DNA from: a virus
Lineage: Duplodnaviria > Caudoviricetes
Reading direction: 5' to 3' (one strand)
Virus record (IMG/VR): IMGVR_UViG_3300035498_000575
Location: 38,417-102,416 of that record
DNA length: 64,000 bases
In this document: piece by piece, positions 498 to 37,231 of the stretch
Layout: each line of letters starts with the position of its first letter
How positions within the stretch are numbered: position 1 is the first letter of the stretch
Program-made: the position numbers and the translations under genes
Notes under the pieces: generated by a model
What the model was told of the DNA's origin: nothing
Seen by the model: only the letters and a program-made list of their open reading frames with translations
Databases searched by the model: none

Positions 498-509
498 AAC
501 AATCCTGTA
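498..509 (+). promoter_or_regulatory. AR9-type late promoter AACA-N6-TA
   Basis: AACA-ATCCTG-TA upstream of nrdD. Confidence 0.65.
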
Positions 510-547
510 ATAAGAAATAAATCTATAATATTTATGAGGTGATTAAA

Positions 548-3500: not shown

Positions 3501-3670
3501 ACGACTGTGGTCATAGTGAGTTGGAAATGGATGTGTGTCCTAAATGTGGTAGCAGGAATTTAACTAAAATAGATAGAATGAATGGATATCTAGCTTATTC
3601 AAGAGTTAAGGGTGATACAAGATTGAATAAAGCTAAGATGGAAGAAATAAAAGATAGAAAAAGCATGTAA
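548..3670 (+). CDS. nrdD: Anaerobic (class III) ribonucleoside-triphosphate reductase with ATP cone and two inteins
   Basis: N-terminal ATP cone (IIKKNG...FDMNKI), YIYIHD, QYGG, FPKL, MG/CR finger-loop Cys, CDDC...CPKC Zn site, RMNGYL glycyl-radical loop. ATG 548 follows GAGGTGA. Confidence 0.95.
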   Translation: MDLRIIKKNGELQDFDMNKIITAVNKSANRVMVDFTDDDIRQLKMNVRSMCADYCNTHDDLIPIEVMHNIVEVSLDKVNKDVATSYREYRNYKTSFVEILNNVYKKVQSIMYIGDKDNANTDSALVSTRRSLIYNQLNKELYQKFNMRPDEVQACKDGYIYIHDMVARRDTINCCLYDMEKVLTGGFEMGNVWYNEPKTIDTAFDVMGDIVLSAAAQQYGGFTIPEVDKILEPYAIKTYEMYRDEFAECNGYTSYDRMLCTIKSFFGSSEQNRIRSRCEEYAKKKLNRDIEQGFQGWEYKFNTVGSSRGDYPFISISFGLCDSEFGKMINKACLKVRMNGQGKKGNKKPVLFPKLTFLYDHNIHGEGCSSEDVFEAAINCSQKAMYPDYLSLTGEGYIPSMYKKYGKVVSLMGCVHGDSEVTISSAENGQEDIKISDLWNRLTDDGYNVLEQIEGEDRFTYIDFSEGGAQIDIYDQMTGYVRVRKIIKNKTNEWILFKFGNGEQLQCTPDHPLPIFYKGRIRADEVCIGDEIHCYDDVEDGNSTRVVSIQHIPCHMEDSYDVETDTDHFTVNNIWSHNCRASLSPWYERGGMEPADDDDYPVFVGRFNMGAISLNLPLILAKARKENRDFYEVLEFYMTMIRRIHLRTYEYIGEMKASTNPLGFCEGGFYGGHLQPDEKIKPLLKPMTMSFGITALNELQRLYNGKSLHEDGEFSLEVMKWINNKINEYKHEDGILYAVYGSPAESLCFSGDTLAWTEDGRIPIKDLKEGTRVFSYDETSGDTVLKPIVSQKMTSPSDRTMYVHFENGDCILCTFFHPFAVLNGDGTSIKYKPAYLLTEGDNVVTSSGTVRFSNFSSMLEDIPVYNIEVEDLHNYFVCSTKESDAYLVHNCGLQAEQFKKLYGVIENVSDRGYVSNSFHDHVTEDITAIEKQNDEGRFWDLFNGGKIQYCRYPLNYNAEAMRIIVRRAMDKGFYEGVNMSLAYCDDCGHSELEMDVCPKCGSRNLTKIDRMNGYLAYSRVKGDTRLNKAKMEEIKDRKSM
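1787..2281 (+). mobile_element. Mini-intein 1 in NrdD (165 aa)
   Basis: Starts CVHGDS, contains block B CTPDHP, ends YDVET...HFTVNNIWSHN/C. Too short to contain a homing endonuclease. Confidence 0.9.
2789..3217 (+). mobile_element. Mini-intein 2 in NrdD (143 aa)
   Basis: Starts CFSGDT, contains CTFFHPF, ends VYNIEVEDLHNYFV...LVHN/C. Confidence 0.9.
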
Positions 3671-3703
3671 TTAAGAAGAAGCCATTATGGCTTCTTCTTA
3701 ATT
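3669..3703. terminator. Bidirectional terminator-like palindrome
   Basis: AATTAAGAAGAAGCCAT-t-ATGGCTTCTTCTTAATT between convergent genes. Confidence 0.75.
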
Positions 3704-3738
3704 TTCTATGATTTGTATATTTCATCGATATATGATTT

Positions 3739-4995
3739 TTATTTTTCAGTATCTCCCGAATCACTTGATGATTTATCTGTAACTTTTGACTTTTTATTTG
3801 AAGGCTTTTCTGGGGTTTTGAATTTAAAGTCATCAACGGTTGGGTATGGAAGTTCTATATATTTTAATTTCAGATTGTACCTAGCGGCACAAATGCGTAT
3901 CGTCGAGTATGTTGTGTTGAATTCAAGCACTGCTTTACGCAATTCGGCAAATCCTCTATTATCCATTCTTTTATCATACGTCGTCTTATCAGTATACCCA
4001 TGGGTAAATACTCTATTAGCACTAGTATTAATTGATCTTTTACAGTCACCTGATAGCTTCGTTATTAGATCATTCATGTGGTGTACATCCACGTCACTAT
4101 ATTTACAATCATTAATTAATTTTTTGAGATCCTGACGATTAATTTGTTCGAGCATTTCATTCATAGGTCCTGAGATTTTTGCTTTAAATGCGTTTATTGT
4201 GTTACGAGATGTGTACGTTGCATATGAGTTCTTATCAAAGTTAGAGAGACCAGAAGCGACGCGATAATTATAATCATTCGATAGTCCTTTGTCGTAATTG
4301 TCATTCATGAGATGTGATGCTGTACTTCTCTCTATTCCATCTATAGCAGCAGGTACAATTGATTGTAAATAACTGAAGAATCTTAGTACAACATTATCAG
4401 CTCTTTTTAATCTTCTGAGATCTTTGGCGTCTAATCCTTCACCAGTTTCGATCCCTCCAAGAATTCTTTTTGTCTCGTCCATTCTTTTTGGAACGGTTGT
4501 CAAATATCGTACTAATCCTATGGCGACGTTGGCTCCTATCGTTCCAAAGTAGGCTGCGCGTATTATTTTATCTCTTTTTTCACGTTTCTCGCATGCGGCA
4601 ACTAAATCATCGAGATTATCCAGTGATGCTTTTTTCTCAGCATCACTCTTACCTTTAAAATGACTAAGCAGTTTTTTCTTAGCTGCTACAATCTTATTTG
4701 TAGATGCAAGAACATCCTCAACTTCTGCTTGGGTATTTTTTGCCGCCTGATTACCCTCAGGAGTTCCGGGTCCTAAGTTTTTAAGTTGTTCTTGTGTTGG
4801 CATATTATCTTTCTTTGTGAAGAATGATTTAATCTTCTCTATTATTTCTTTTATCTTATTTACAAACTTAGTAAATAAGCCTTCTGATTGTGGAGATGTG
4901 CCACCGTCCTCCATTACTGCTATATAGTAAGAATCTAAATACCATGCTGCTTCATGGCGATCTTTCATACTTTCTAGTATGTATTCATTAATCAT
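3739..4995 (-). CDS. Putative internal head/virion protein
   Basis: N-terminal ILES/VMED/QSEG sites followed by the amphipathic stretch LFTKFVNKIKEIIEKIKSFF, typical of phiKZ-type head proteins. ATG 4995 follows GAAAGGA. Confidence 0.55.
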   Translation of the reverse strand: MINEYILESMKDRHEAAWYLDSYYIAVMEDGGTSPQSEGLFTKFVNKIKEIIEKIKSFFTKKDNMPTQEQLKNLGPGTPEGNQAAKNTQAEVEDVLASTNKIVAAKKKLLSHFKGKSDAEKKASLDNLDDLVAACEKREKRDKIIRAAYFGTIGANVAIGLVRYLTTVPKRMDETKRILGGIETGEGLDAKDLRRLKRADNVVLRFFSYLQSIVPAAIDGIERSTASHLMNDNYDKGLSNDYNYRVASGLSNFDKNSYATYTSRNTINAFKAKISGPMNEMLEQINRQDLKKLINDCKYSDVDVHHMNDLITKLSGDCKRSINTSANRVFTHGYTDKTTYDKRMDNRGFAELRKAVLEFNTTYSTIRICAARYNLKLKYIELPYPTVDDFKFKTPEKPSNKKSKVTDKSSSDSGDTEK

Positions 4996-5051
4996 TAATA
5001 TCAATCCTTTCTTAATATATGTCTATGATTTATTTATATTAAGGTTTATTC

Positions 5052-5060
5052 GGGGGGGGG
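5052..5060. repeat. G9 homopolymer in a divergent promoter region
   Basis: Nine consecutive G in an AT-rich intergenic region. Confidence 0.85.
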
Positions 5061-5132
5061 TAATATTTTAACAATCAGTAGTTCTGTTGTATTTTTTACA
5101 ATTTATTAATATAAATAAAAGGAGATGATACT

Positions 5133-8100
5133 ATGCCAGAAAAAGTCAATAATGCTGATAACTTGTTAGCCGCAATGGGTAATAATACGTTCAGCTTACA
5201 ACAGACGCATGAGAGTGCTGTGAAAGCGATGCAGAACTCATATGTATATCTATCTAAGCTTCAACGAGCTATTGTGGATTACCATACGCCTACGGAGTAT
5301 AGTAGTTTTGACTCACTATCAATAGATGACAAATATGATGTGGTCATACATGTACCATACAATATTATTCATCCAGATGACAGAAGAAAGTACAGAATTA
5401 GTGAATTTTATGACAAAGATATAACGATGGATGATATAATCAATAATCCTGATATTTTCAGATATTTTCCTGTTGTTATTATTGATGAGCAAGTCGTCTG
5501 TATTAAAAAATATAGATTCACTTTAAATGAGACGTTTGATGTTGTATTAGATATTGACAAGTCCTATAGACTCGACGAGCATAGGGTAAAAGTATTCATA
5601 TTTGACAATTATTATATAAGTGATGATAGGGTTACTAGGAAAACATTCGTCAATAATGGATATAAGTTTAATTCTAGGAATATTCTTAGGAAGTGCCCAA
5701 GTGATTTTAATGGCACAATATTTTTATATTTTCATAATGGGTTTACAGTATTCGGTAGTAACTTATATGCGGTGGATCCTTCATATAAAACAACAGGAAT
5801 GATTGATATATCAGCTGGTATTACTGAAGAAACTCTACATCAAGTTCTTGAGGATTCTACTTTATTTTATGTATATGCTATATTTGTACCTGACTTATAT
5901 AAATCGGAAGTATTCGACTATAAGAATCCATACCTTGTTCTTCCTGATGACTATAGTATGCCTGTGCCTAAGGAGAATATAGTGGTAGTTAGTTACAAAC
6001 CTGAGACAGGTTCTATGATGGAAGTTATTAAACCTACTGAGCATATTTATCCTAATATTTACAAATTTGATTGTGAACCTGATAAATCATATCAAGCTTA
6101 TTATTTCTACAAGGATGACGAGGACAAAATTCTTAAGTTTAATAATAAATTTAAATTCTTCTTTGATTACCTTGAATATAAGTATAGTAGGAGCACGACT
6201 CAGATGCTTTTCAATAATATTATGAATGGAAGCATTGAACTTAGCGATAATATGAGTAATTATTTGGATAAAGTAATCAATTATGTGGATCCTTCGTATG
6301 ATTATACCAATAAGAACTTTGATGAATCAAATTTACTATCATTTGATTATAAAACTGGAAAGTTAAGAGAGTTTATAGATTATGATCCATGGATATTGAA
6401 AGACTACATAATAGATCAAAATAAAGTGGGATATAGAAGATATCTGTACGTGAAAGACATTGACCTAGCATCTAGATACAGGTTAAACACATTCGCGGAG
6501 TCAACCTGTGAAAAGGATAATTTGGTATTTGATGAGCCCAGATATGTTTTCATGTTTAAGAATGATTATCCTAATATACTTCATATAAGATTTTATGTAG
6601 ATGGTATTATATGTCCTATTCCACATTCTGTACTTGCACACGGAATTGAGTATTACTACGTCCCAGCATCTATGTTTAAAGATGACAGTGTTGTAGAGAT
6701 TGAAAGACTAGACCAATACAGATTTAGAGAAAAGTTGAATTGTCAATTAGATGTAGAAGGTAATTATTCTCAGATTATACAATTTCCACAATTCAATAAT
6801 GCAAACCCTACTGTGTTTGATATTTATTTCACTGACGCATATGATAGACGACTCACATATTCTGCATTTAAAGTTGAGTCATTGACTGATGGTGCTAAAT
6901 ATTCTATCAATATCAATGAGCAGTCAATTGATTTCAGTGACAAGAATATGCTTGAGAAAATATCGTTTTTTGATTCAAATGATAACCAATATTTTGTTAA
7001 GAATGGAAAATTAGTTGATAGTGAAGGTAATGTGTATAAGGGTTCTTATGATGTACGAGGAACTACAGAAATAGAGCATATAAAGATACAAAACGTAATC
7101 TTGACTAACACCAATGATCAAGGAATAGAGGGAGATATAACTTTATATGACACATCTGGAGCAGAAACTTCTTTTAATGATATCAAATTTAAGGTTGATG
7201 ACATAGGAGAAGTATTGGGATACAATAATAGTTTCCTATTTTTGAAGAGTGGTGTTAAGGTAACTCTTGTTGGTACTATGTATAAAGATAAAGACGTGTG
7301 GATAAACGTTAACAAGCATTCTAGAGGTTTTAATTTCTTTGTTGAATGTCCGTCTGTTCCTAATTTAGTAATACCGGAGGTTAATATACTTCACAGAAGA
7401 AGAAAAGAATATATGAGAGTATTCTTAAATGGTAAATTACTACATCCAGATAGTTGGATATTTAAGTATGTTAAGAAAAAAGGTTATATCCGAATTGCGT
7501 TGAAGAAAGCGTGTAAAAAGGGTGATGTTGTTAGTGTTGACATGAACGTAAACGCATATCGTATTGAGTATCACCTAACAGAAATACCAGAAGATTATAT
7601 AATTGATGTCAATCATTTCTTAGATAAACCTCTAGCATTAGAATATTATGATATATATGTAAATGGTAGGAAACTTAATGAATCGAATGTTACTATTCTT
7701 ACCCCAACTAAGATGATACTCAGTGGGGTACACTCAAGGAAGGATTTACAAATTATATCTAAGGATAGGGACCCAGAATACTACGGATTTGATGAAAATG
7801 GTTGTACTACTGAACTGGATGAATTCATTGACTCTGTATTACCAGAAGATGATAAAGGAGAATTCTATCAACATTTAGTTAACGAGATTAACCCAAACGC
7901 TGACGGTGACAATATTATTTCTGATGATAGTGAAGAATATTTATTAGAAGACGTAGTTTATAACGAAAGAGACTACAATAGGTGGGCTTTTTACTTCAAT
8001 GAGCTTTCGCCTATCGGTCATCTTAACCCTGATCTTGTGCAGTTCAACTATTTGCGTTTAAAGCAATATTACCCTTATATCAATGAGGATTATAAACGAG

Positions 8101-8210
8101 GAACTTCAAAAAGAACTAGGAAAGCAGTAACTACAGATCCAGACATAGTTTATAATGCTGGTGTACGATTACTTGTCGGCGGAATGGTAGATGTTAATGA
8201 TTTAGTATAA
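5133..8210 (+). CDS. Large putative virion structural (tail/baseplate) protein
   Basis: 1025 aa, beta-rich, with repeated (F/Y)(V/L)(N/D)G(K/R) motifs. AGGAG RBS and near-consensus late promoter TACA-ATTTAT-TA at 5097-5108. Confidence 0.55.
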   Translation: MPEKVNNADNLLAAMGNNTFSLQQTHESAVKAMQNSYVYLSKLQRAIVDYHTPTEYSSFDSLSIDDKYDVVIHVPYNIIHPDDRRKYRISEFYDKDITMDDIINNPDIFRYFPVVIIDEQVVCIKKYRFTLNETFDVVLDIDKSYRLDEHRVKVFIFDNYYISDDRVTRKTFVNNGYKFNSRNILRKCPSDFNGTIFLYFHNGFTVFGSNLYAVDPSYKTTGMIDISAGITEETLHQVLEDSTLFYVYAIFVPDLYKSEVFDYKNPYLVLPDDYSMPVPKENIVVVSYKPETGSMMEVIKPTEHIYPNIYKFDCEPDKSYQAYYFYKDDEDKILKFNNKFKFFFDYLEYKYSRSTTQMLFNNIMNGSIELSDNMSNYLDKVINYVDPSYDYTNKNFDESNLLSFDYKTGKLREFIDYDPWILKDYIIDQNKVGYRRYLYVKDIDLASRYRLNTFAESTCEKDNLVFDEPRYVFMFKNDYPNILHIRFYVDGIICPIPHSVLAHGIEYYYVPASMFKDDSVVEIERLDQYRFREKLNCQLDVEGNYSQIIQFPQFNNANPTVFDIYFTDAYDRRLTYSAFKVESLTDGAKYSININEQSIDFSDKNMLEKISFFDSNDNQYFVKNGKLVDSEGNVYKGSYDVRGTTEIEHIKIQNVILTNTNDQGIEGDITLYDTSGAETSFNDIKFKVDDIGEVLGYNNSFLFLKSGVKVTLVGTMYKDKDVWINVNKHSRGFNFFVECPSVPNLVIPEVNILHRRRKEYMRVFLNGKLLHPDSWIFKYVKKKGYIRIALKKACKKGDVVSVDMNVNAYRIEYHLTEIPEDYIIDVNHFLDKPLALEYYDIYVNGRKLNESNVTILTPTKMILSGVHSRKDLQIISKDRDPEYYGFDENGCTTELDEFIDSVLPEDDKGEFYQHLVNEINPNADGDNIISDDSEEYLLEDVVYNERDYNRWAFYFNELSPIGHLNPDLVQFNYLRLKQYYPYINEDYKRGTSKRTRKAVTTDPDIVYNAGVRLLVGGMVDVNDLV

Positions 8211-8222
8211 GGAGTGATAATT

Positions 8223-8906
8223 ATGAGGAGAAGATCCAACTATTCTATCTTAGAAGATACTATGGATCGTTTACTAGAAACTGAGAATATGGCAGCACAA
8301 TTGTTACCTCAGATTGGTAATACCGAGGGTCCTGACTGTATCTCTACTAAGGATATAATCGATATGGTGTCTTCAGCAGATGATGATTATGACGTAAAGT
8401 CATTTACTGATGTAGACAGAGTAGTCAACGAGATGTACAATAATTTATTTGAAGCATCGGTGGAAACGCCTGATGAGATGAAGAGAATTGTAGAACACCT
8501 TGAATCTAAGGGCTACAAGGTTAAGTATGCTAGCCCTGGTCATCTAAATACAAAGTTTAAGAATGACAGAAATGGCGATAGAATATCTAATTCCAAGATG
8601 GTATCTACAGCAAGAATAATATTCAAGAATCCAGAATTAAAGATTGAACCACCATACTTATGGGAACTAAAAATCATGGATGATTGTACTGGCTTATATG
8701 TAAAGCCGTATACATATAATGAAGCTTCCCAAGGTAGTAAGGATGAAGCGTTTATAAAATGGAAGGAAAATTACATGAAGTCCCTAGATGAATGGGCGCA
8801 TAAGAGTGACAACATCGACGGAACAACACAAAAGAAGAGAGATAAGTTATTCTTGACAAATGCAAAAGCTAAGCTTGTCTCTAAGAAGGAAAACGACAAG
8901 AAATAA
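8223..8906 (+). CDS. Hypothetical protein, probably virion
   Basis: AGGAGTGAT RBS, adjacent to the upstream gene, carries LLET/LFEA sites. Confidence 0.6.
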   Translation: MRRRSNYSILEDTMDRLLETENMAAQLLPQIGNTEGPDCISTKDIIDMVSSADDDYDVKSFTDVDRVVNEMYNNLFEASVETPDEMKRIVEHLESKGYKVKYASPGHLNTKFKNDRNGDRISNSKMVSTARIIFKNPELKIEPPYLWELKIMDDCTGLYVKPYTYNEASQGSKDEAFIKWKENYMKSLDEWAHKSDNIDGTTQKKRDKLFLTNAKAKLVSKKENDKK

Positions 8907-8909
8907 ACA

Positions 8910-8934
8910 AGAAGGAAGCGTAACGCTTCCTTCT
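8910..8934 (+). terminator. Hairpin terminator
   Basis: AGAAGGAAGCG-taa-CGCTTCCTTCT. Confidence 0.65.
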
Positions 8935-9079
8935 ATAAAATATGTTTTGTAAGTATATAAACCAAAAATATTTAGGCGAAATGTCTATATGAGAATATAT
9001 TACAATATTGTTTGACAATAGAATTTATTATTTGGACAATATGATAAATCAAAAATTGTTAATATGGAGGAAGAATTCT

Positions 9080-10201
9080 ATGAAAAAGAAAAAAAAGCAA
9101 CAAATATATAATATAAAGATTGATTCGGATAAAGTGATGACTGAACAGGAACTTCGTGAATATTTATATGGTGAAGCTCCTACTTCTCCACTTGAGGTAA
9201 TAGGTTATGAATTATCAGCAGGATACTTTTCTGCATGGTTAGTTGTGATTATATCGATAATCGCATTATTGATAGGCTTGTTTATAGGCGGCTTTGATTG
9301 CGCCCGTAGATTTTCATTGCCTGTTTCAGAAGTATTCTCTCTAAGTCTTTCTAAGTCGGATTATGCGTATAGTCCTATGACTGGACATATAGAATACGGA
9401 TATAATAATTCGACTACGACTGGCTATAATATAACTGATAATCATAATGACGATACCGTCACCGGTCTTGACAGTTTAATTCCCGAAGGAATCAACGTTG
9501 ACGGTGCGACAATTAATATTTATCAAGGAGATGTTTACATAGGAGACACCTATGACGATGCTGTTTATAATTATGAAAACCGAGATAATCAATATATAAG
9601 CGCAACAGATAATTCTGGTAATAGCTCAACACCATCCGTCCAAAATCCGGATAATGATGAAAGTTCGAGTGTTTCAGAATCATCTGACACGGAAAATTTG
9701 GATATCGTTGAAAATAAAAATGATACCGAGTTAGATTCAGATGTCGTTGATGATAGTCAGATTGACGATAACGACGGAATCGAAATTAATATTGAAAACC
9801 AAGATGTTTCTGACGACCAGTTAGACAAATCTGATAATTCTGATATTATTCAGGATAATAGTTATACCCATGCAAATGGGCCTATAGTTTTCAATATTAC
9901 TAAGTCATCAAGTGATGATGGCAACCCAAAAAAAGAAAAAGATGATACTAATATAGATATTCAGGATAGTAAAGATGATGATAATGAAATCGACGTTGAT
10001 TCTCCCGACCAGCCAATCGTGGAGGATACTGACGCTGATGACGTTATTACCATAGGTGATAGCCTAAGACTAGATGAATCTGGTTATACAAATTCATCTA
10101 GTGGAAGTCTATCCCAACTTTACTATGGCGTTATAATAAGCGCATTTTGGATGTTAATCACAATAGGTATAGTTGTATATCTCAAAAAACATAAGATGTA
10201 G
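9080..10201 (+). CDS. Membrane protein with two TM helices flanking an acidic D/S/N-rich domain
   Basis: GGAGG RBS at 9066. Hydrophobic segments AWLVVIISIIALLIGLFIGG and LYYGVIISAFWMLITIGIVVYL, then KKHKM. Confidence 0.75.
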   Translation: MKKKKKQQIYNIKIDSDKVMTEQELREYLYGEAPTSPLEVIGYELSAGYFSAWLVVIISIIALLIGLFIGGFDCARRFSLPVSEVFSLSLSKSDYAYSPMTGHIEYGYNNSTTTGYNITDNHNDDTVTGLDSLIPEGINVDGATINIYQGDVYIGDTYDDAVYNYENRDNQYISATDNSGNSSTPSVQNPDNDESSSVSESSDTENLDIVENKNDTELDSDVVDDSQIDDNDGIEINIENQDVSDDQLDKSDNSDIIQDNSYTHANGPIVFNITKSSSDDGNPKKEKDDTNIDIQDSKDDDNEIDVDSPDQPIVEDTDADDVITIGDSLRLDESGYTNSSSGSLSQLYYGVIISAFWMLITIGIVVYLKKHKM

Positions 10202-10280
10202 GCTAAAATCTTATGAATTTTGATTTGTACAAATATATCCATCCAACTTTATGAATGGAGTATTAGTTTTGAATATAAAA

Positions 10281-10310
10281 AAGAAGCAAGACTTTATGGT
10301 CTTGCTTCTT
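10281..10310. terminator. Terminator-like hairpin overlapping the 3' end of the TnpB-like gene
   Basis: AAGAAGCAAGAC-tttatg-GTCTTGCTTCTT. Confidence 0.6.
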
Positions 10311-11304
10311 CTTGTTTCAATATTAAATTTTCAATTCGACTATATCCTTCATTTGCTATCACTTTAGCGGCATTCACATCCCTGTCATGTATTTCACCAC
10401 ACACAGGACAAATGTATCTTCTTATTGTACACATGTCATGTATGTTGTAAGGCATATCCATTTTCATCTCATCGAGTACTGTAATCCAACCGTTATTGAT
10501 ATTCTTACGTCTCTTTTTAACCGTAGTTAATCTTAGCTTAGGAATTTTGAACTCTTCGTCAGCTAGCAGATTGTATTGGTCTATGACTATATTGCTTCTT
10601 TGAGTTGCTAAATCGTATGATTTAGCAGTATGTTTATTTTGTAGTGTACCTGTAATTGCAGAATTTACTGTATGTATACAGTTGTTGTATCTGGTCACGT
10701 TTCTTAAAAGAGTATGGTCTAAGTCAAGGAAGTTAGCACCATCAACCATTTGACTTTTTGTAAAAACTTCCATTGTATGGTTGCATCTATATGTACTAAT
10801 ATATCCATAATCTAGTTGTATGCAACCAATTTCTTTCTCTTTACAAATAGATATTATATAGTCTTGTAGCCAGTCAATCACCCTTCCAATTATTTGAGCA
10901 TCAACCCAGTATCTGTACTTTTCTCTTGAGTTAATGTCATCTCTGTCAATATTGTCCATTAGTTGTTTTTCTAAACATATAGCGTGTTCTATGACTAGAA
11001 CTTTAATTTCATTCTCCTCTAGAATATTTTCAAGCTCCTTTTTCAATTGATCTTTTCTTTGGTTAATCATATTGATTATATTTCTTTCGACATCACTTCT
11101 ACATTTTTCTGATGGGTACACAACGACTCCGTTTATTATATCGGCAGCGTTTTGTGTCCAAGTTACTGTATGCATGAAGTCTTGAGAAAACACCAGTTTT
11201 TGTGTCATCTTGCCATATAACGACAATGGCCTACTGAATGTTATAGGTGACGTCTTACCAACATCAATGCCTATTACATAATTAAATAGTTCATCAGTTT
11301 TCAT
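10294..11304 (-). CDS. TnpB-derived RuvC/Zn-ribbon protein lacking the N-terminal REC/WED lobe
   Basis: RuvC-I VIGIDVG at aa 10-16, RuvC-II VLVIEH, YISTYRCNH, and RRYICPVCGEIHDRDVNAAKVI. GGAGG RBS. Confidence 0.8.
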   Translation of the reverse strand: MKTDELFNYVIGIDVGKTSPITFSRPLSLYGKMTQKLVFSQDFMHTVTWTQNAADIINGVVVYPSEKCRSDVERNIINMINQRKDQLKKELENILEENEIKVLVIEHAICLEKQLMDNIDRDDINSREKYRYWVDAQIIGRVIDWLQDYIISICKEKEIGCIQLDYGYISTYRCNHTMEVFTKSQMVDGANFLDLDHTLLRNVTRYNNCIHTVNSAITGTLQNKHTAKSYDLATQRSNIVIDQYNLLADEEFKIPKLRLTTVKKRRKNINNGWITVLDEMKMDMPYNIHDMCTIRRYICPVCGEIHDRDVNAAKVIANEGYSRIENLILKQEEARP

Positions 11305-11336
11305 TTATTATTACCTCCAATATATTTTATTTAGTA

Positions 11337-11362
11337 GTCCTGTAGGATGTAGCCTACAGGAC
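11337..11362 (-). terminator. Hairpin upstream of the TnpB-like gene
   Basis: GTCCTGTAGG-atgtag-CCTACAGGAC. Confidence 0.55.
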
Positions 11363-11380
11363 GATTAAGTGATTTGACAA

Positions 11381-11737
11381 CTAATATGACGTTTTTATTA
11401 TATCGGTCGGAATAAGATTGTCAGCATCGTTAGTACAATACAGGAAATCTGATAAATAATCTGAATGGTGAATGCTTTTATACAATTCGTCCTCAGGGTT
11501 ATAGACAGCCGATATAAATGATTTGACTTCATCAGGTTTAAACTTATGTAATGCTGCTAAGATGGCAGCAACAATTTCAGCATCAGACTTTGATGTTAAT
11601 ATCATTGTGTTGACAACATTGTTGATGTAATCCATCTGTGAGATATCATCTAATTGTCCTATTAAACGGTAGCAATCATATGATACCCATTTTATAATAT
11701 TACGTTCATATCTCTTCTTAATCAATAATTCTATCAT
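11381..11737 (-). CDS. Hypothetical protein (early operon)
   Basis: 118-aa ORF with AGGAG RBS. Confidence 0.7.
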   Translation of the reverse strand: MIELLIKKRYERNIIKWVSYDCYRLIGQLDDISQMDYINNVVNTMILTSKSDAEIVAAILAALHKFKPDEVKSFISAVYNPEDELYKSIHHSDYLSDFLYCTNDADNLIPTDIIKTSY

Positions 11738-11766
11738 GTTTATCAGCTCCTTCTTTAGTTTAAGAG

Positions 11767-12153
11767 TTATAACATATCATTCGTTAAACCTCTAAGGTTC
11801 ACCACATCCTCTTTCTTAGATTCTAATAAATCCAATGTCATTAATACTGCTGTTCTCTCCGAATTGGTTAGGTTGTCTTTTAACAATGCACTTACGTGAG
11901 ATATAGCATTATTGATATCAACCTCAACTTCTTCAGCGAATTCAATAGCGTTTTTAATTTCGTCTGCGGTAACGAATAAAGAGTTTATAACACTTATTTG
12001 TTTGTTAGGGTAGTTATAAACTACCCTTTCTTTTTCTTTTACAACAGGTTTTACGTAACCGTAAACTCGGTTATACCATCCTATACAATCATCTTTGTCG
12101 TATGACCAAGCTTCTATTTCGTTATACCTGTCATAAATGACATATACCTTCAT
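11767..12153 (-). CDS. Hypothetical protein (early operon)
   Basis: 128-aa ORF with AGGAGG RBS. Confidence 0.7.
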   Translation of the reverse strand: MKVYVIYDRYNEIEAWSYDKDDCIGWYNRVYGYVKPVVKEKERVVYNYPNKQISVINSLFVTADEIKNAIEFAEEVEVDINNAISHVSALLKDNLTNSERTAVLMTLDLLESKKEDVVNLRGLTNDML

Positions 12154-12173
12154 ATATTTATACCCTCCTAAAG

Positions 12174-12590
12174 TTATTCGTTTAGTTGTAAAGATATAGT
12201 TTTTAAGATGATAGCATATACCTCAAGGTCGTAAGGTGGGATTATCCTACAAGCCATTTCACGTTCAAGTGATGTGAATATAGCATCTGCTACCATCATA
12301 CTTTCACCAGTAAACTTACCAAGCAATAATGCCAGTCTTTCACTAGTCTTTATCTTATTGTATGGTAAGTTTGTTATTTTATTATTTTTGAAGTTATTGA
12401 TTATCTCATCGTACTCCTTAATAATACCGGCTTTATACCTTTTTAATTCACGTCTTTTCATCCCATATGTGTCTTTGTCATTCCAAAACTGTCGTTCTAT
12501 ATTCTCAACATCAGATATGAATCTGTTCTTGATTTTAGAACTTTGGTCGTTTTTGTCTTGCTTATTTTTTGAATTAGAAAATAACACCAT
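12174..12590 (-). CDS. Hypothetical protein (early operon)
   Basis: ATG 12590 follows GGAGGT; early motif 46 nt upstream. Confidence 0.7.
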   Translation of the reverse strand: MVLFSNSKNKQDKNDQSSKIKNRFISDVENIERQFWNDKDTYGMKRRELKRYKAGIIKEYDEIINNFKNNKITNLPYNKIKTSERLALLLGKFTGESMMVADAIFTSLEREMACRIIPPYDLEVYAIILKTISLQLNE

Positions 12591-12635
12591 ATTATTTACC
12601 TCCATTTATGGTCTTAGTTTATACGCTTGCATAAA

Positions 12636-12649
12636 TATAATATATAATT
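12636..12649 (-). promoter_or_regulatory. Early-type promoter motif AATTATATATTATA
   Basis: Exact 14-mer upstream of a minus-strand operon. Confidence 0.7.
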
Positions 12650-12742
12650 AAATTTATTCTTTTTAAACTATGAGAAAAACGGTGTGAAATAAATGACATT
12701 ACATTTAAATAACCAAAAAAATATTGAAGGGATGATGCTAAA

Positions 12743-15700
12743 ATGGCACAAAGTATAGAGAAGTTACCGTTTAATACAGGTATGATAAGAAAATACACAC
12801 TCCCTATTTCTAGTTCACCTGACGTTACACGCGGTAGAGGTGTATTATTGTTTTTGACAGGAGATGATATTAATTCTAACATATCTACTATTAATGGTAA
12901 GTCCAATATCTATGATTATGGTAATACGTATAAAAGATACTATTTACCTGTAAGAATAAGAGGTAAGCTTGCTACTAAGACGATTAATTATTACGATCCA
13001 ACAACTCGTAAGAACACATACAAGTTAATTAAAAAGGCGTGTCCAAAAATAAAGGAAACACCGATAATGCCTCTTGAAAATACTAACCAGTTGATAAATT
13101 GTTATTTTGACATGTCGACTTATATAGGTATTTATAATCGTATATGTTTAAAGATGAATATAATGAGAAAGATCTCACTCTACTGGAGTTTTATGGATTT
13201 AGTATGGCATTCACCTCAGACCAATAAGTATCCAGTTAAGTACGTCCTAATAGATCTAAAGAATTTTGGTCCATGGACAGGAGACCCTAAAGTTGATATA
13301 TCTAACCCATCATATTTGATATACCATACACTATACAGATTTAAATCAGTGATACCCGATTCCTTGAAGGATTTGACATTCGTTTTATATTCTGATACAG
13401 CTGTGTTAAAAGTAAATATGGTAGACTTACGTGACATAGATAATGGTGCAATGATCTACAGAAGAGAGGTTAAGAAAGTACTAAGAACTTGCCCTCAGAA
13501 ATCTATTACAGTAGATGCAACTTCTGAAGAAGCTAATATCATATACGATGAGATTAAATCTCATTTGGCTCAACGATATAAGTTTATCGGTGATGCTGAA
13601 AACGATGATAATACTGAGTCAATCAAGGTGTCTAATGAATACGAATCTGAAGAAGATCCTATGGATGTTCAGTTAAATAAAATAGACAATAAAGTTGAAA
13701 AGATAACTGCTGAGATTCTATCTGAGGTAGACGATGAGAATATTGATGATAAAGTTGGATATGTTGATACTGTAATTGAAGATAGGATAAATGATGATAA
13801 GGAACTCATTCAAACTATGTATTCAGTTACGCAGAAACAAAAGTGCCCAACTAAGCCATTGTCATCTGCAAGAGATGCTGAACTACGTAAGAAACAGTCA
13901 GATATTAAAGTATCTGGTATGACGCTATCAGATCTTAACCAGATAAAGAGTAGTGATATAAAAATACCAGTTAATGATGTTAGTGCGAGCCTAAATACAT
14001 CAAATAAAAATTTCTCTGAGGTTAAATTCTCGAACTTTGAAAAAGAGTACAATAACAAAGTAATGAAGCATGATATAATGAATGCATTCGAATCTTTGAA
14101 TGACAAGTCGATACCTATGTATATCAGAGATATTAAGGTTGAGGATACATCAACGCCTATAGACTATAAGGAAACTTATACCATCATGTTTGAGGATGCA
14201 AATAGACAACGTCATACAGTTAAAGTGGATATACCCAAGTTTATTGACGATAAGTTCATGTGGTTAGGAAGTAATAAGAAGATCATTGAAAAGCAAGACT
14301 TTTTGTATCCAGTTGTTAAGGTAGACCCAATCACGGTACAAATAGTTACTAATTACAACAAGATGTTTGTAGGAAGATATGATAAGAAGAATAATGCATC
14401 TGTTGAAAGACTTCTATCGATTATTAAAAAGAATGAGTCTTATGCAAAGTATTTTACTGTAGGTAACACATATAATGCAAATACATCGTATGTTACTACA
14501 ATTGAATTAGACCAATTAGCTACATTATTTACAAACGTAAATATGGGAGACCTAATGCTTAATTTTAATCTACCCGAAGCAGCAGCTAAGGCTACAACCA
14601 AACCTGAAAGCGGCAAACTATATATAGGAACTGAAAAGGGGAAACCTGTAATAGTAGATAGCTCTACAGGTAGATGTGTTGACGGTAGAAGTATTGTGGA
14701 TACCATTGTGGATAATATGCCTGATGAAATGAGAAATGATTATTTAAAGACAAAATCACCAAAGAGGGTTACGTATACTACAGTAACTATAATGTCTCAA
14801 ACTATACCATTTATTGTCTTACTATCATATTGGGAAGGCTTAACGACAGTAATGAAGAAGGCAAAAATAAACTACGAAATAGTAGATAAACGTCCATCAT
14901 TAAGCGCTCGTCAAAACTACATCCAATTTAGTGATTGTTTTTTAGTGTATGACGATTCACTAGGCAGCGGATTATTGATGAATGGCTTAAAGATATTAGA
15001 TACAGAGAACTACCCAATAACTGAATTTGATGAAGCAGAACCTTACATTAATTATTTTATCAAGGTTTATGGAAAGAGTGCTATAACAGGTGCGTTAATA
15101 AACGCATATGAGTTTACTATAGATCCAATCACTAAAGAAGTATTACGTGACATTGGTCTACCAGAAGATCTTGTTGAATTGTGTATATATGCTAATAACT
15201 TACTAGCCGATAACGCTTACACGTTTGAGGGTGACCAGAGATTGTACCGTATAAGATCAAATGAAATTATAGCAGCTATTTTATATAAGGAAATAAGTAA
15301 TAAGTATGTCACCTACAGAAATAGTGGTGGTAAGAAGAGATTCTCTATTCCTCGAGACGCGGTTATTAAGACGTTGTTAGCACAAGAAAATGTTAAGGAT
15401 TACTCTACTCTAAATCCGGGAACAGAGTTGACTGAGAGCAGAGTTTTGACATGTAAAGGCTTTAAGGGATCTAACGTACAAGAAGCTTATAACCTAAAAA
15501 GACGTTCTTACCCTAATTCTATGCTAGGTGTATCAGCGATATCAACACCATCTGATGGTAATGTTGGTGTAACTAAACACATGGCTCTAGAACCTACTGT
15601 TACTAATGTCAGAGGTTACTGTGATCTAAAGTATCAAGATCCTGATAGTTTAAAGGACGTAAACTTACTATCGCCTGATGAGCTAATGTATCCTATAGCT

Positions 15701-16924
15701 GGTTCACATGATGACCCAACACGTATATGTATGGCTAGTAAGCAAACAAACCATATCGTTCCTACAACTAAAATGCAGTCAGCATTAATTTGTAATGGTA
15801 TGGAAGAAGCAGTTAGATTTAACCTATCAACCGATTATGTTGTTAATGCTAAAATGGATGGAAAAGTCATAGAGGTTGATGATAAGAATAAGATGATTGT
15901 AGTTGAGTATAAAGATGGCACACACCAAGTGCTTGATTTAAGTTCTAACATTGTAAAAAACGGTGGTGGCGGTTTCTTTATGAACAACAAGAAGATTTCT
16001 AACTTGAAGGTTGGAGATAAGTTTAAGAAAAACGATTTATTAGCTTGGCACGAGGGATTTTTCACTAACGATGAAATAAACGGACCTAGACTAAAAATCG
16101 GCTCTCTACAGAAAGTTGCTATTACCACCTCTTATGCAACATATGAAGATAGTACTTTCATTACCGATAAGCTGGCACACGACTGTGCTACATCAATGAC
16201 GTTTAGAAAAGACATAGTTATTGGTAAGAACTCCAACCTAGAATATATCATTAAGGTCGGTGATCATGTTGAAGTAGGAGATACACTTCTTCAATTTGAT
16301 ACATCCTATGAAGATAGTGAACTAAATAAACTCCTTAAAAATATTGGTGAAGACTTGCAGGAAGAAGTTCTTGAAAATAGTAAAAACAATGTCAAGAGTA
16401 AATATGCTGGAGAAGTTGTTGATATCAAAATATATTCACCGGTTCCATTGGAAGAGCTTAGTCCTAGTCTACAAAAATTAGTGGGTAACTATTATAAAGG
16501 TAATAAGTCAAAATATAATAAGATAAAATCATATGCAACTGATGAAGAAAAAAAATCAGTATATGCGTGCGGTGTTTTAATGACTGATCCTGTGGATAAA
16601 GTAGAACCTAATAGATTTGGGGTAATCCGTGGTGAGAAAGTTGGCACTGACAACATCAAGATAGAAGTTTATATTGAACACGGTGATGTAATGGGTGTAG
16701 GTGATAAACTTGCCTATTTTGCAGCACTTAAGGGAACTATTGGTGAAGTTATTCCAAAAGGATTGGAACCCTATACAACTACTCGTCCTGACGAACAAGT
16801 AAGTGCTACCATTGCATCAAATAGTATATTGAAGCGTATGGTTCCTAGTATTATACTTAACGTGTTAGGTAATAAAGTTTTAGTTGAGTTAAAGCGTAAG
16901 CTTAAGGAAATATACGAGTCATAA
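12743..16924 (+). CDS. Virion RNA polymerase beta-like subunit (phiKZ gp178-type)
   Basis: Beta motifs STPSDGNVG, DDPTRICMASKQ, YEDS, GDKLAYFAALKGTIG, KRM. Lacks the beta C-terminal RFGE region and has a long N-terminal extension. Near-consensus late promoter at 12700-12711. Confidence 0.88.
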   Translation: MAQSIEKLPFNTGMIRKYTLPISSSPDVTRGRGVLLFLTGDDINSNISTINGKSNIYDYGNTYKRYYLPVRIRGKLATKTINYYDPTTRKNTYKLIKKACPKIKETPIMPLENTNQLINCYFDMSTYIGIYNRICLKMNIMRKISLYWSFMDLVWHSPQTNKYPVKYVLIDLKNFGPWTGDPKVDISNPSYLIYHTLYRFKSVIPDSLKDLTFVLYSDTAVLKVNMVDLRDIDNGAMIYRREVKKVLRTCPQKSITVDATSEEANIIYDEIKSHLAQRYKFIGDAENDDNTESIKVSNEYESEEDPMDVQLNKIDNKVEKITAEILSEVDDENIDDKVGYVDTVIEDRINDDKELIQTMYSVTQKQKCPTKPLSSARDAELRKKQSDIKVSGMTLSDLNQIKSSDIKIPVNDVSASLNTSNKNFSEVKFSNFEKEYNNKVMKHDIMNAFESLNDKSIPMYIRDIKVEDTSTPIDYKETYTIMFEDANRQRHTVKVDIPKFIDDKFMWLGSNKKIIEKQDFLYPVVKVDPITVQIVTNYNKMFVGRYDKKNNASVERLLSIIKKNESYAKYFTVGNTYNANTSYVTTIELDQLATLFTNVNMGDLMLNFNLPEAAAKATTKPESGKLYIGTEKGKPVIVDSSTGRCVDGRSIVDTIVDNMPDEMRNDYLKTKSPKRVTYTTVTIMSQTIPFIVLLSYWEGLTTVMKKAKINYEIVDKRPSLSARQNYIQFSDCFLVYDDSLGSGLLMNGLKILDTENYPITEFDEAEPYINYFIKVYGKSAITGALINAYEFTIDPITKEVLRDIGLPEDLVELCIYANNLLADNAYTFEGDQRLYRIRSNEIIAAILYKEISNKYVTYRNSGGKKRFSIPRDAVIKTLLAQENVKDYSTLNPGTELTESRVLTCKGFKGSNVQEAYNLKRRSYPNSMLGVSAISTPSDGNVGVTKHMALEPTVTNVRGYCDLKYQDPDSLKDVNLLSPDELMYPIAGSHDDPTRICMASKQTNHIVPTTKMQSALICNGMEEAVRFNLSTDYVVNAKMDGKVIEVDDKNKMIVVEYKDGTHQVLDLSSNIVKNGGGGFFMNNKKISNLKVGDKFKKNDLLAWHEGFFTNDEINGPRLKIGSLQKVAITTSYATYEDSTFITDKLAHDCATSMTFRKDIVIGKNSNLEYIIKVGDHVEVGDTLLQFDTSYEDSELNKLLKNIGEDLQEEVLENSKNNVKSKYAGEVVDIKIYSPVPLEELSPSLQKLVGNYYKGNKSKYNKIKSYATDEEKKSVYACGVLMTDPVDKVEPNRFGVIRGEKVGTDNIKIEVYIEHGDVMGVGDKLAYFAALKGTIGEVIPKGLEPYTTTRPDEQVSATIASNSILKRMVPSIILNVLGNKVLVELKRKLKEIYES

Positions 16925-16930
16925 CAAAGA

Positions 16931-16962
16931 AAAAATGAAGTTCCAAACGGAACTTCATTTTT
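16931..16962. terminator. Bidirectional terminator
   Basis: AAAAATGAAGTTCC-aaac-GGAACTTCATTTTT between convergent genes. Confidence 0.8.
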
Positions 16963-16977
16963 ATATAGTTATTGTTT

Positions 16978-17448
16978 TTATTCTTCTTCATCATTGATAG
17001 GTTCAACTATCGGATTAATAGCGACATCCTCTGTACCATCTTCTATATCTGCATCATATTCGAATTCTGGAACCGCATCTGTGTTTGAATTGTCGTTATC
17101 TATAGACAATTCTACAGGTTGTTCGGGTTGCTCAAAAATTCTAACACAGAATTCATGCTCTACAATATTGACTAGCTTTTGACATAGAAACCTAGGCAAA
17201 ACCATATTTGTACTGTCGAATTCAAGCGCAGTGTATCGTTCTCCATCTTCCTTTTCAGTATTAAATTGCTCTATGCAATTATCAATGATTGCTGCACCGG
17301 ATATGTGATATATATCGTCTTCACTGTATGTATCGATGCCCTGTTCAGAAGTATCCTTTTTTATTAGCTCTGATAATTCATCGGCTGCACCTCTTAGCTG
17401 TCTTAGTGCTTCATTAGCCTCATCGATATTAGTAAACATAATCTTCAT
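16978..17448 (-). CDS. Acidic hypothetical protein
   Basis: ATG 17448 follows GGAGGT. Confidence 0.7.
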   Translation of the reverse strand: MKIMFTNIDEANEALRQLRGAADELSELIKKDTSEQGIDTYSEDDIYHISGAAIIDNCIEQFNTEKEDGERYTALEFDSTNMVLPRFLCQKLVNIVEHEFCVRIFEQPEQPVELSIDNDNSNTDAVPEFEYDADIEDGTEDVAINPIVEPINDEEE

Positions 17449-17482
17449 AGCAATTACCTCCAAAAAAAAATAAATTTATAAA

Positions 17483-17512
17483 TTACCAACCGCTAGTAAC
17501 AGCGGTTGGTAA
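17483..17512 (-). terminator. Hairpin terminator
   Basis: TTACCAACCGCT-agtaac-AGCGGTTGGTAA after the 17526-18017 gene. Confidence 0.65.
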
Positions 17513-17525
17513 AATATTATGTGTT

Positions 17526-18017
17526 TTATTGAATATCAATACGCTTCTTTAGATAAGATGGACAACCGCTAGATGCCTTTAGCTTCTTATGCTTGCCCAT
17601 TAGTGTGTGATATTCTGTTACATTACCATCCTTGTCCTTTAACTTGGATGTCTTCTCAACTTCTTCCTTTGTCTCGAGTTCGATACCGCCCTTGAAGTCA
17701 TATCTAGGGAGGAAGTTGAACTTGTTACCATCGTCCATGTACTCGTAAACAGCTGTAGCGATAAATTCGTATAGACCGTCTACGTTAGTAAATTGGAACT
17801 CAGGTTCCATGACCTTCTGAGCTTCAAACTTGTCAACACCAAACTTTTCAAGAAGCTTCTTACAGAATCCTCTAAAGCCTTCTGTTACAGCTACTTCCTT
17901 GATGGTGTAACCCTCAGCCTTCATCTTGGATGCTTCTGCAACCTCTACCTTGAATGCTGGGTCGTTGATAATCTTCTTAATGGTTTCGTTGAAACCTTCT
18001 CTTGAAAATCTACTCAT
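17526..18017 (-). CDS. Hypothetical protein, probably highly expressed early protein
   Basis: GGAGG RBS, AAG/TTC/AAC-biased codons, own promoter and terminator. Confidence 0.7.
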   Translation of the reverse strand: MSRFSREGFNETIKKIINDPAFKVEVAEASKMKAEGYTIKEVAVTEGFRGFCKKLLEKFGVDKFEAQKVMEPEFQFTNVDGLYEFIATAVYEYMDDGNKFNFLPRYDFKGGIELETKEEVEKTSKLKDKDGNVTEYHTLMGKHKKLKASSGCPSYLKKRIDIQ

Positions 18018-18135
18018 ATTTTTATACCTCCATAAAATCTGTGGATGAATAGTTTAGTAATATAAGTTATCCACGGAACTTAAATTACTTTATTGTTTAT
18101 GCGAATTAAAATTCTATTAAACCTTAATTCTCGTT

Positions 18136-18149
18136 TATAATATATAATT
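18136..18149 (-). promoter_or_regulatory. Early-type promoter motif
   Basis: Exact AATTATATATTATA. Confidence 0.65.
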
Positions 18150-18159
18150 GAATCACGTT

Positions 18160-18771
18160 TTAGAATTCTTCTTCGTCATCAAGAAGAATACGCAACTCGT
18201 TTAGAGCTTTGTATAACTTACTGGTATCTCTGTCGTTTTTATCTTCGTTAGAAAATCTGTCATTATTTGTTTGATTGTTTTTGTCTTTTATCATGTTAGT
18301 ATAATACTCGACAGCCAGCTTATCGCAACGTTCATTTTCTGGGTGTCCATCGTGACCTTTAATCCAGATGAACTTAGCTTTGTGTTGTTTTAGCAAACCT
18401 GATAGTTCCTTCCATAGATTCTCATTCTTTACAGGTTGGCCTGTCCATTTCTTCCAGTCATTCTTTTCCCAACTATATAACCATCTCTTGTTAATTGCGT
18501 TTGTTACGTATTGGGAATCGCTGAATACCTTTATGCTATCAAATGACAATCCTTCTTCTCTCATGAGTTTACCAACAAGTTTTAAACCTTTTATAACACC
18601 GGATAATTCCATTTGGTTATTAGTGGTGTTCATGAAACCGTTAACATAAACAATTTCTTTGTCTTTTATCTCGTTGTCTGTATCATCGATTATTTTTAGT
18701 ATAGTCGCGAATGCTCCCGGACCGGGATTTTTGCTGCAAGCACCGTCACTGTAGATTTCTACTCTCATCAT
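18160..18771 (-). CDS. rnhA: Ribonuclease HI
   Basis: IYSDGACSKNPGPG, TTNNQMEL, SDSQYV, WIKGH, NERCDKLA. Confidence 0.95.
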   Translation of the reverse strand: MMRVEIYSDGACSKNPGPGAFATILKIIDDTDNEIKDKEIVYVNGFMNTTNNQMELSGVIKGLKLVGKLMREEGLSFDSIKVFSDSQYVTNAINKRWLYSWEKNDWKKWTGQPVKNENLWKELSGLLKQHKAKFIWIKGHDGHPENERCDKLAVEYYTNMIKDKNNQTNNDRFSNEDKNDRDTSKLYKALNELRILLDDEEEF

Positions 18772-18782
18772 TATACCTCCTA

Positions 18783-18947
18783 TTATTTGGATAGACGTTT
18801 ATCTATCTTTTCTTGGTCTATACCTTTTTCTTTAAGTAATGTAACCACTATGGTATCTAACGCTTTATAATTACCGTCAGCAGTCATGTGGTTTTTGACC
18901 GTTTTGAACGCTCTGCGTCCTCTCTCAATGTCATCTTTCTTACTCAT
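18783..18947 (-). CDS. Small basic hypothetical protein (54 aa)
   Basis: ATG 18947 follows GGAGGT; coupled to rnhA. Confidence 0.65.
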   Translation of the reverse strand: MSKKDDIERGRRAFKTVKNHMTADGNYKALDTIVVTLLKEKGIDQEKIDKRLSK

Positions 18948-18991
18948 GATAATTACCTCCAATTGTATTTTAGTATTATTCATACCGCATT

Positions 18992-19005
18992 TATAATATA
19001 TAATT
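18992..19005 (-). promoter_or_regulatory. Early-type promoter motif
   Basis: Exact AATTATATATTATA, 45 nt from the ATG. Confidence 0.7.
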
Positions 19006-19047
19006 GTACCGATTTTTTGCAAAAATACAGCTGAAAGGTAAGGTGAA

Positions 19048-19059
19048 AACAATATATTA
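19048..19059 (+). promoter_or_regulatory. Late promoter AACA-N6-TA
   Basis: AACA-ATATAT-TA upstream of the tape measure gene. Confidence 0.7.
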
Positions 19060-19091
19060 AAAATCAGATTAAATTCGAAAGGAGAATTTAT

Positions 19092-37190: not shown

Positions 37191-37231
37191 TTTAATTTAC
37201 CTCCAAAATATTTATGGTTTATAAGATTACA

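Follow-up and report, generated by a model that had tools for sequence, protein, structure and literature searches.

TnpB is the ancestor of all Cas12 effectors. Its omega RNA is bound by a WED/REC lobe, as are the transposon-associated motif (TAM) and the duplex of guide and target. To our knowledge, the known exaptations of TnpB (Cas12, Fanzor, TldR and Cas12k/CAST) all keep this RNA-binding lobe. The TldR proteins are TnpB-like, nuclease-dead repressors encoded by phages as well as hosts (10.1101/2023.11.30.569447). Here we describe a phage gene from which the RNA-binding lobe is absent and in which the catalytic lobe is retained. The gene was found in a 64,000-nucleotide stretch of DNA (hereafter the window) that corresponds to bases 38417-102416 of the 102,416-bp IMG/VR record IMGVR_UViG_3300035498_000575. 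It is a 336-residue open reading frame (ORF) on the minus strand, whose product (P0001) comprises the RuvC and zinc-ribbon/TNB lobe of TnpB with an intact catalytic triad and a large insert in the zinc ribbon. Proteins of this kind are referred to here as headless.

The three catalytic residues of the RuvC active site, D14, E106 and D309, fall in the D/E/D columns that are invariant among 25 TnpBs in a joint alignment, and all three codons were checked on the DNA (Table 1). The columns that were invariant across the headless family, the 25 TnpBs and a full-length TnpB-like paralog from the same record were G12, D14, G16, E106, S170, C174, R295, C299, C302, H306, R308, D309 and N311. The zinc site was remodelled in that the second cysteine of the canonical first CxxC is gone in every family member, and C174, C292, C299 and C302 are invariant in the family. 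On the family alignment, C292 is a candidate fourth zinc ligand and a possible stand-in for the lost cysteine. There are 124 residues between C174 and C299, versus approximately 15 between the half-sites in typical TnpBs, which gives a net insert of approximately 110-115 residues. An initial annotation, made from the letters of the window and a list of its open reading frames, had pointed to a strong GGAGG ribosome-binding site, an ATG 13 residues before the RuvC-I aspartate, a complete D/E/D triad and more than 100 residues between a CNH half-site and CPVC, and each of these was borne out. The PF07282 (TNB) profile covered residues 294-316 only, scoring 25.6 bits in one run (cut-off 26.3) and 28.9 bits, over the cut-off, in another, and the C-terminal 27 residues matched PDB chains of TnpB, Cas12m and TranC. 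The G+C content of the gene equals the genome average and it is therefore not a fresh acquisition.

Profile and structural comparisons both placed the protein with TnpB. Alignment of the family with a 22-sequence TnpB alignment by hhalign gave a probability of 98.5% (E-value 2e-15), with residues 12-185 lying on TnpB columns 184-332, that is, RuvC-I through the first zinc half-site. An AlphaFold2 (AF2) model built without templates from the joint TnpB alignment had a mean predicted local distance difference test score (pLDDT) of 87.5 and a predicted template modelling score of 0.69; a single-sequence AF2 model (pLDDT 31) was discarded. When the retained model was compared with 48,161 PDB representatives, the top matches spanned model residues 8-326. 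They were ISDra2 TnpB (8h1j_A, residues 185-378; Z 13.3, root-mean-square deviation 2.9 A over 170 aligned residues), ISFba1 TnpB (8iaz_A, Z 12.9), CasLambda (8dc2_A, Z 12.3), Fanzor2 (9b0l_P, Z 11.9), Cas12m2 (8hhl_A, Z 11.6) and Cas12f (8dzj_A, Z 11.2). Weaker matches were to Thermus thermophilus RuvC (4ld0_A, Z 8.9), Pseudomonas aeruginosa RuvC (Z 7.8), Ydc2 (Z 6.8), the RuvC of phage bIL67 (Z 6.5) and a poxvirus resolvase (Z 6.2). Foldseek searches of the PDB and of BFVD returned the same families. The predicted fold is thus a RuvC of the TnpB type, consisting of a RuvC and zinc-ribbon/TNB lobe. The initial annotation had proposed profile, AlphaFold and Foldseek checks of this kind and had allowed that the fold might not be RuvC; hhalign, AF2 and Foldseek all gave a TnpB-type RuvC, and the homology and structure together agree with its view of a TnpB-derived protein reduced to the RuvC/zinc-ribbon lobe.

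When 1.84 billion representative proteins were scanned exhaustively with phmmer, without a length limit, three full-length relatives were all that appeared apart from a fragment of the protein itself. A profile search and cluster look-ups added P0014 and P0070 and the complete form of P0006, and these representatives together with 5.8 billion clusters yielded only four lineages, the window's own protein included. The lineages are the window's own protein (336 residues), P0004 with P0071-74 (327 residues), P0005 (350 residues) with P0014 and P0070 (353 residues), and P0076 (343 residues). The other three are 27-32% identical to the window's protein and the whole family is 327-353 residues in length. 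The contigs bearing the homologs are of 236 and 97 kb (P0014 and P0070, respectively), up to 28.8 kb (P0071-74), 19 kb (P0005) and 5 kb (P0076). Every lineage is headless, beginning 13-33 residues before RuvC-I, and every lineage has the insert and the triad. Residues D14, E106, H107, C174, H211, C292, C299, C302, H306 and D309 are invariant across all four, which indicates purifying selection on the active site. Neither the 1.84-billion-representative scan nor a dedicated search found any longer or fused form of the family. Since start position, length, insert and triad are kept in divergent lineages, the headless-plus-insert architecture is old and under selection. The conserved start that the initial annotation had suggested looking for was therefore found, and its concern that close homologs would all be full-length, with this allele a recent truncation, does not hold.

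Further searches brought no new members. There was no match by tblastn with the protein and its homolog P0014 in 50,697 phage records, and scans of IMG/VR with the family alignment, P0014, P0071 and P0076, as well as scans of JGI metagenomes and GTDB genomes, returned only ordinary TnpB C-termini. In an unrooted three-group tree the headless family was monophyletic (99/95) and grouped with the phage's own paralog. We do not claim that the family originated from this paralog, as the grouping is uninformative in a long-branched, unrooted tree of three groups.

The insert is specific to the family and was absent from every TnpB of the joint alignment. It could be aligned without large gaps across all four lineages, with a mean identity of 28% versus 35-37% for the RuvC core. 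In the AF2 model its helices comprise residues 183-194, 197-222, 230-247 and 259-265, and it occupies the position at which larger Cas12 proteins hold the Nuc or target-strand-loading (TSL) domain. Residues N191, N207, H211, N214, A233, N238, I241, N245 and G272 are invariant, and two helix faces are rich in invariant asparagine, histidine and arginine, namely N207-(N/R)208-H211-N214 and A233-N238-I241-N245. A language-model search with the insert alone gave a weak lead to Cas12a NUC/RuvC_1 families (score 0.87) and otherwise generic helical bundles. With a conserved helical domain gained at the Nuc/TSL position, substrate binding seems to have passed to protein.

No part of a guide apparatus was found with this lobe. 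There is no WED/REC lobe anywhere in the protein and no match to PF12323 or to an OrfB N-terminal profile. The 102-kb record contains neither a Y1 TnpA (PF01797) nor a serine recombinase (PF00239), and no IS-like flanking repeats beyond chance length were detected, in line with the initial annotation, which had seen no tnpA or obvious insertion sequence (IS) end. No array-like tandem repeats indicative of a CRISPR array were present in window positions 1-20000, PADLOC matches to Cas12f covered the RuvC-III/TNB tail only, and no Rfam RNA matched above threshold. Only 92 nt separate the stop codon from the convergent gene at 9008-10201, and these are filled by a terminator; no room for an omega RNA was found beside the gene.

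Based on these results the protein would resemble the catalytic lobe of TnpB or Cas12f most in the way it works, and the family compares with described systems as follows. With TnpB, the omega-RNA-guided endonuclease of IS200/IS605/IS607 elements (e.g., ISDra2 TnpB, PDB 8h1j/8exa), it shares the RuvC fold, the D-E-D triad, a RuvC-III motif of the "DRDXN" type that typical TnpBs have and, with the second CxxC only, a putative zinc-ribbon/TNB between RuvC-II and RuvC-III. It differs in that the approximately 180-residue WED+REC lobe is wholly absent, the first CxxC is cut to one cysteine with a new cysteine at 292 and a TNB insert of approximately 115 residues, and the locus has no omega-RNA locus, TnpA or IS ends. 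Scores against the curated NCBIfam models NF038281 and NF040570 were 34.3 bits (cut-off 425) and 22.2 bits (cut-off 100), with only the last approximately 28 residues of the models matching. As they lack the WED/REC lobe and the omega RNA and transposon context and fall short of the curated scores, the proteins are better described as a family derived from TnpB than as TnpB itself. The RuvC/TNB core is common to Cas12f, CasLambda/Cas12l, Cas12m, Fanzor2 and CasX (Z 9.5-12.3), and the larger Cas12 proteins likewise have an enlarged domain at the Nuc/TSL position. However, the headless protein has no CRISPR array or REC/WED and is half the size or less. TldR is also a TnpB exapted for a non-transposon role, but it is the mirror image, in that TldR has lost the RuvC active site and still has the guide-binding lobe, whereas the reverse holds for the present family. 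The RuvC-superfamily resolvases (bacterial RuvC, bIL67 RuvC, Cce1/Ydc2 and poxvirus A22) are, similarly, stand-alone RNase-H folds that work without a guide (Z 6.2-8.9), and Ydc2 likewise has extra helical elements; the zinc ribbon and DRDXN motif of the headless protein are, in contrast, TnpB traits, and there was no evidence of a dimer.

We found no description of a headless TnpB-type nuclease in the literature, and the family is not mentioned in a TnpB census (PMC10691335) or a jumbo-phage survey (PMC7824862). In the ESM Atlas there are clusters of short (203-269 residues) TNB-only "TnpB family" proteins, either genuine genes or fragments, which are detectably related to the family in the TNB only, so that a missing head may not in itself set the family apart. 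The novelty lies in jumbo-phage contigs combining, in conserved form, an intact triad with a remodelled zinc site and a helical insert.

The genomic setting bears on the function of the protein. The record is 42% complete (CheckV), with a G+C content of 34%, and encodes split, multisubunit RNA polymerase (RNAP) beta-like proteins at window positions 12743-16924 and 34848-37190. Among cultured phages, its RNAP beta comes closest (approximately 30-35% identity) to that of Bacillus PBS1 and Goe21, the Staphylococcus jumbo phages S6, MarsHill and PALS_2, and Listeria LPJP1. This makes the record part of the genome of an uncultured jumbo phage of the PBS1/AR9 type, whose host is probably a member of the Bacillota. 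A family profile was searched against PBS1, MarsHill and LPJP1, all complete genomes, and against G001, a relative from IMG/VR, and detected no homolog. G001 has only two genes in common with the record, and these relatives are too distant for an empty-site comparison. Each of PBS1, MarsHill and LPJP1 encodes a RusA resolvase (PF05866, E-values 1e-18 to 4e-13), and none of them encodes RuvC or endonuclease VII. Upstream of the headless gene lie three small, co-oriented ORFs; none belongs to a Pfam, PHROG or NCBIfam family, and tblastn against the 50,697 phage records gave no match. The RNAP beta gene of relatives is a hot spot for introns and HNH/homing endonucleases, which interrupt or flank it in PBS1 and MarsHill, and the corresponding gene of the window adjoins the block that contains the headless gene.

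The explanation that we prefer, tentatively and at slightly under even chances, is that this lineage-specific gene encodes a guide-independent accessory DNA endonuclease of a conflict or homing type that was exapted from TnpB. It would be a stand-alone nuclease built from the TnpB catalytic lobe, a RuvC RNase-H fold with its zinc-ribbon/TNB, and would most likely cleave DNA by a two-metal-ion mechanism at D14, E106 and D309 with no RNA as guide. Substrate binding would fall to the zinc ribbon and to the expanded TNB, which is analogous to Nuc/TSL domains, and these would also lead a strand into the active site. The conserved triad and zinc ligands argue for a working nuclease, and the loss of the guide- and TAM-binding lobe together with the absence of an RNA locus argues that a guide is no longer used. 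As for its role, the rarity of the family, the lack of a detected homolog in cultured relatives, the orphan neighbors and the presence of RusA in the clade favor an accessory or homing function over core junction resolution, so that a free-standing conflict or homing-type DNA endonuclease appears the most probable. Traits that may fit the homing type are the gene's own ribosome-binding site and terminators and the lack of a detected homolog in PBS1, MarsHill, LPJP1 and G001, all of which are distant relatives. The initial annotation had proposed a domesticated derivative and, among its options, a guide-independent nuclease, and this remains the best reading of what the protein may do.

Several points weigh against this explanation. 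The RuvC site of TnpB and Cas12 is normally activated by R-loop formation, we found no precedent in the literature for a TnpB RuvC lobe working without WED/REC, and the headless form could be inactive alone or dependent on a partner. The resemblance of the AF2 model to TnpB is not fully independent of sequence homology, since TnpBs were included in the alignment from which it was built. The patchy distribution is judged from a small number of distant relatives, and there was no sign of mobility, of a target site or of a second copy. With the record incomplete, the missing part may also contain a partner or a RusA gene.

Of the other explanations, a structure-specific nuclease is the leading competitor, although we consider it distinctly unlikely. 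The protein would then be the phage's resolvase for Holliday junctions or branched DNA, debranching concatemers before packaging as a non-orthologous replacement for RusA. Guide-free enzymes with a RuvC fold are typically resolvases, and several are among the structural matches (Z 6.2-8.9); the initial annotation had also suggested a resolvase. In addition, the 102-kb record yielded neither RusA nor RuvC nor endonuclease VII (the RuvC profile PF02075 had no match at E<=1), whereas PBS1, MarsHill and LPJP1 each have RusA, and complementary replacement among resolvase families has been seen in jumbo phages (PMC7824862). However, the missing RusA means little in a record of this completeness, and the use of RusA by all three complete relatives weakens the idea. 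Moreover, TnpB-type RuvC domains are monomers that act on a single strand, with no known dimer interface, and both the extreme rarity of the gene, with no homolog detected in cultured relatives, and its place in an orphan accessory block would be odd for a core function. An RNA-guided split effector, in which the headless lobe would be recruited by a separate guide-binding protein or by the ribonucleoprotein of the paralog, seems improbable to us. The paralog is full-length, lies 10 kb away and has features in common with the family, including a post-RuvC-I motif (LCTLSKPVTINGK in the paralog and LCTFSHPVTIDDK in P0004 of the family, with PITFSRPLSLYGK at that place in the window's own protein) and an E-H dipeptide, and Cas12f works as an asymmetric dimer. 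Yet the paralog, with its own D/E/D intact, needs no extra nuclease, and no RNA candidate adjoins the headless gene. The initial annotation had looked to the small upstream ORFs or the paralog for a partner; these ORFs gave hhalign probabilities below 1% against the TnpB profile, with no similarity to the N-lobe, and a six-frame search of the 102-kb record with the paralog's N-terminus and an N-lobe hidden Markov model (HMM) found no second N-lobe, the HMM being weak enough to miss the paralog's own N-terminus.

A non-catalytic decoy or regulator, which might sequester the guide RNAs or target DNA of a host TnpB or Cas12, would be consistent with the many anti-defence proteins that phages encode and with the contribution of the TnpB RuvC lobe to binding of the omega-RNA scaffold (PMC10097598). 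We nevertheless regard it as very improbable, because the catalytic residues and zinc ligands are invariant across approximately 70% divergence and a pure binder needs neither. The known inactivated derivatives, TldR, show the opposite pattern, with the active site lost and the N-lobe kept, and the decoy against host Cas12 or TnpB put forward in the initial annotation is thus disfavored in its pure form. That the gene might be a decaying remnant, a 5'-truncated tnpB pseudogene without function, has a negligible chance of being correct. Truncated TnpB fragments are indeed common in databases (P0031, P0040, P0068 and the short TNB-only clusters), but here start position, length, insert and triad have been preserved through four divergent lineages, and the ORF is intact in a genome of 34% G+C, with a strong ribosome-binding site and its own terminator. 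A recent truncation or pseudogene is effectively refuted by the conserved headless family.

If the preferred explanation of a guide-independent endonuclease is correct, a derivative consisting of the catalytic lobe only would show that the RuvC/TNB module of TnpB can work, or be selected, alone, as a minimal TnpB-type nuclease. It would also show the grafting of a new substrate-binding domain at the Nuc/TSL position, where Cas12 proteins diversified, and the accessory genes of PBS1/AR9-like jumbo phages would gain a further class of nuclease. A further-reaching version is doubtful, although it has a real chance: recognition may have reversed from RNA-guided to protein-guided, with a TnpB that shed its guide lobe and grew a DNA-recognition domain in its zinc ribbon, giving rise to a new class of protein-only endonuclease. 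Such an enzyme would be site- or structure-specific, may work as a homing nuclease, and would be the nuclease-only mirror image of TldR and the smallest natural TnpB-type RuvC enzyme. Should the protein instead prove inactive or partner-dependent, it would be a natural test case for the gating of RuvC by the missing lobe in TnpB and Cas12.

Table 1. Positions of the headless TnpB-type gene, its sequence elements and flanking features (window coordinates unless stated otherwise).
Feature	Position	Strand	Basis or remark
Gene, headless TnpB-type nuclease	10294-11304	-	ORF call, four-lineage family, profile match, AF2 model
Start codon ATG	11302-11304	-	RuvC-I Asp is residue 14, i.e., 13 residues before RuvC-I
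Shine-Dalgarno GGAGG	11314-11318	-	9 nt before ATG; read from sequence
D14 codon, RuvC-I catalytic Asp (VIGIDVG)	11263-11265	-	Invariant in family and across 34-row alignment including TnpBs
E106 codon, RuvC-II catalytic Glu (VIEH)	10987-10989	-	H107 likewise invariant in family
First zinc half-site, single C174 (RCNH)	10783-10785 (codon)	-	Family alignment
Family-specific insert, residues 178-291, four modelled helices within zinc ribbon/TNB	10432-10773	-	Alignment and AF2 model
Second zinc half-site C299-P-V-C302 plus family-specific invariant C292	10399-10431	-	Family alignment
D309 codon, RuvC-III catalytic Asp (HDRDVNAA, DRDXN type)	10378-10380	-	Invariant; aligned with D361 of ISDra2 TnpB
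Bidirectional intrinsic terminator, common to convergent gene 9008-10201	10281-10310	both	12-13-bp stem, stop codon in loop
10-bp hairpin	11337-11362	-	Begins 33 nt above ATG, between upstream ORF 11381-11737 and gene; z -2.6
Candidate sigma-70-like promoter CTGACA-16-TATAAT, 11/12	11397-11424	-	Pattern match only
Three co-oriented small ORFs (118, 128 and 143 residues)	11381-12605	-	Lineage-specific orphan block upstream of gene, adjoining RNAP beta gene
Full-length TnpB-like paralog, 472 residues	Record 37179-38597, ends at window 181	+	Intact D/E/D, CxxC...CxxC zinc ribbon

The two hairpins that the initial annotation had noted, one upstream of the gene and one over its stop codon, are both real. 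The downstream hairpin had folding energies of -21.9 and -24.9 kcal/mol, with z scores of -8.4 (minus strand) and -5.6 (plus strand) and a U-run on the minus strand. The upstream hairpin is probably the terminator of ORF 11381-11737 or a stem in the 5' untranslated region. Most neighboring genes in this genome have a perfect hairpin between them, and the downstream hairpin acts as a terminator, so neither is special to the headless gene, and we rejected the hairpins as parts of a system because they are ubiquitous.

The motif AACA-N6-T(A/T), the late-promoter consensus of the non-virion RNAP of Bacillus phage AR9, occurs 20-60 nt upstream of many genes (e.g., at window positions 33044-33055, 42001-42012 and 43135-43146). 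It was not found upstream of the headless gene, or before the minus-strand block 10294-12605 or the RNAP beta gene. These motifs suggest a transcription programme like that of AR9/PBS1 and possibly DNA that contains deoxyuridine.

The paralog had been noticed in the initial annotation as another TnpB-like gene at the start of the window, and in the complete record it proved to be a full-length ORF. Its N-terminus keeps the hallmark "TKIRLYPN", and TnpB HMMs match it from RuvC onward only. An AR9-type late-promoter motif, AACATTTAGTTA, is present at -59. Apparent short "transposase" matches to the paralog in Streptococcus and Lactobacillus phages were ordinary TnpBs of 370-411 residues; next to two of the three there is another, small "transposase" ORF that is probably TnpA. 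In LPJP1, near the genome end at record positions 221021-221233 on the minus strand, there is a TnpB-like frame (TNB 62 bits, 366-residue open frame) with one in-frame TGA, and TnpB-like genes therefore recur in this jumbo-phage group.

A scan with a neighboring 1025-residue protein found nothing. An RNase H is also encoded in the window, as is an anaerobic ribonucleotide reductase, NrdD (PF13597, E-value 5e-101; 539-3670), with Hint/intein domains (PF07591 and PF14890) inside the ORF. Lastly, the same perfect palindrome of 30-32 nt (GTATATATGTGGTATATACCACATATATAC) was observed between genes three times, at window positions 63462-63491 and at record positions 4803-4834 and 7368-7397.

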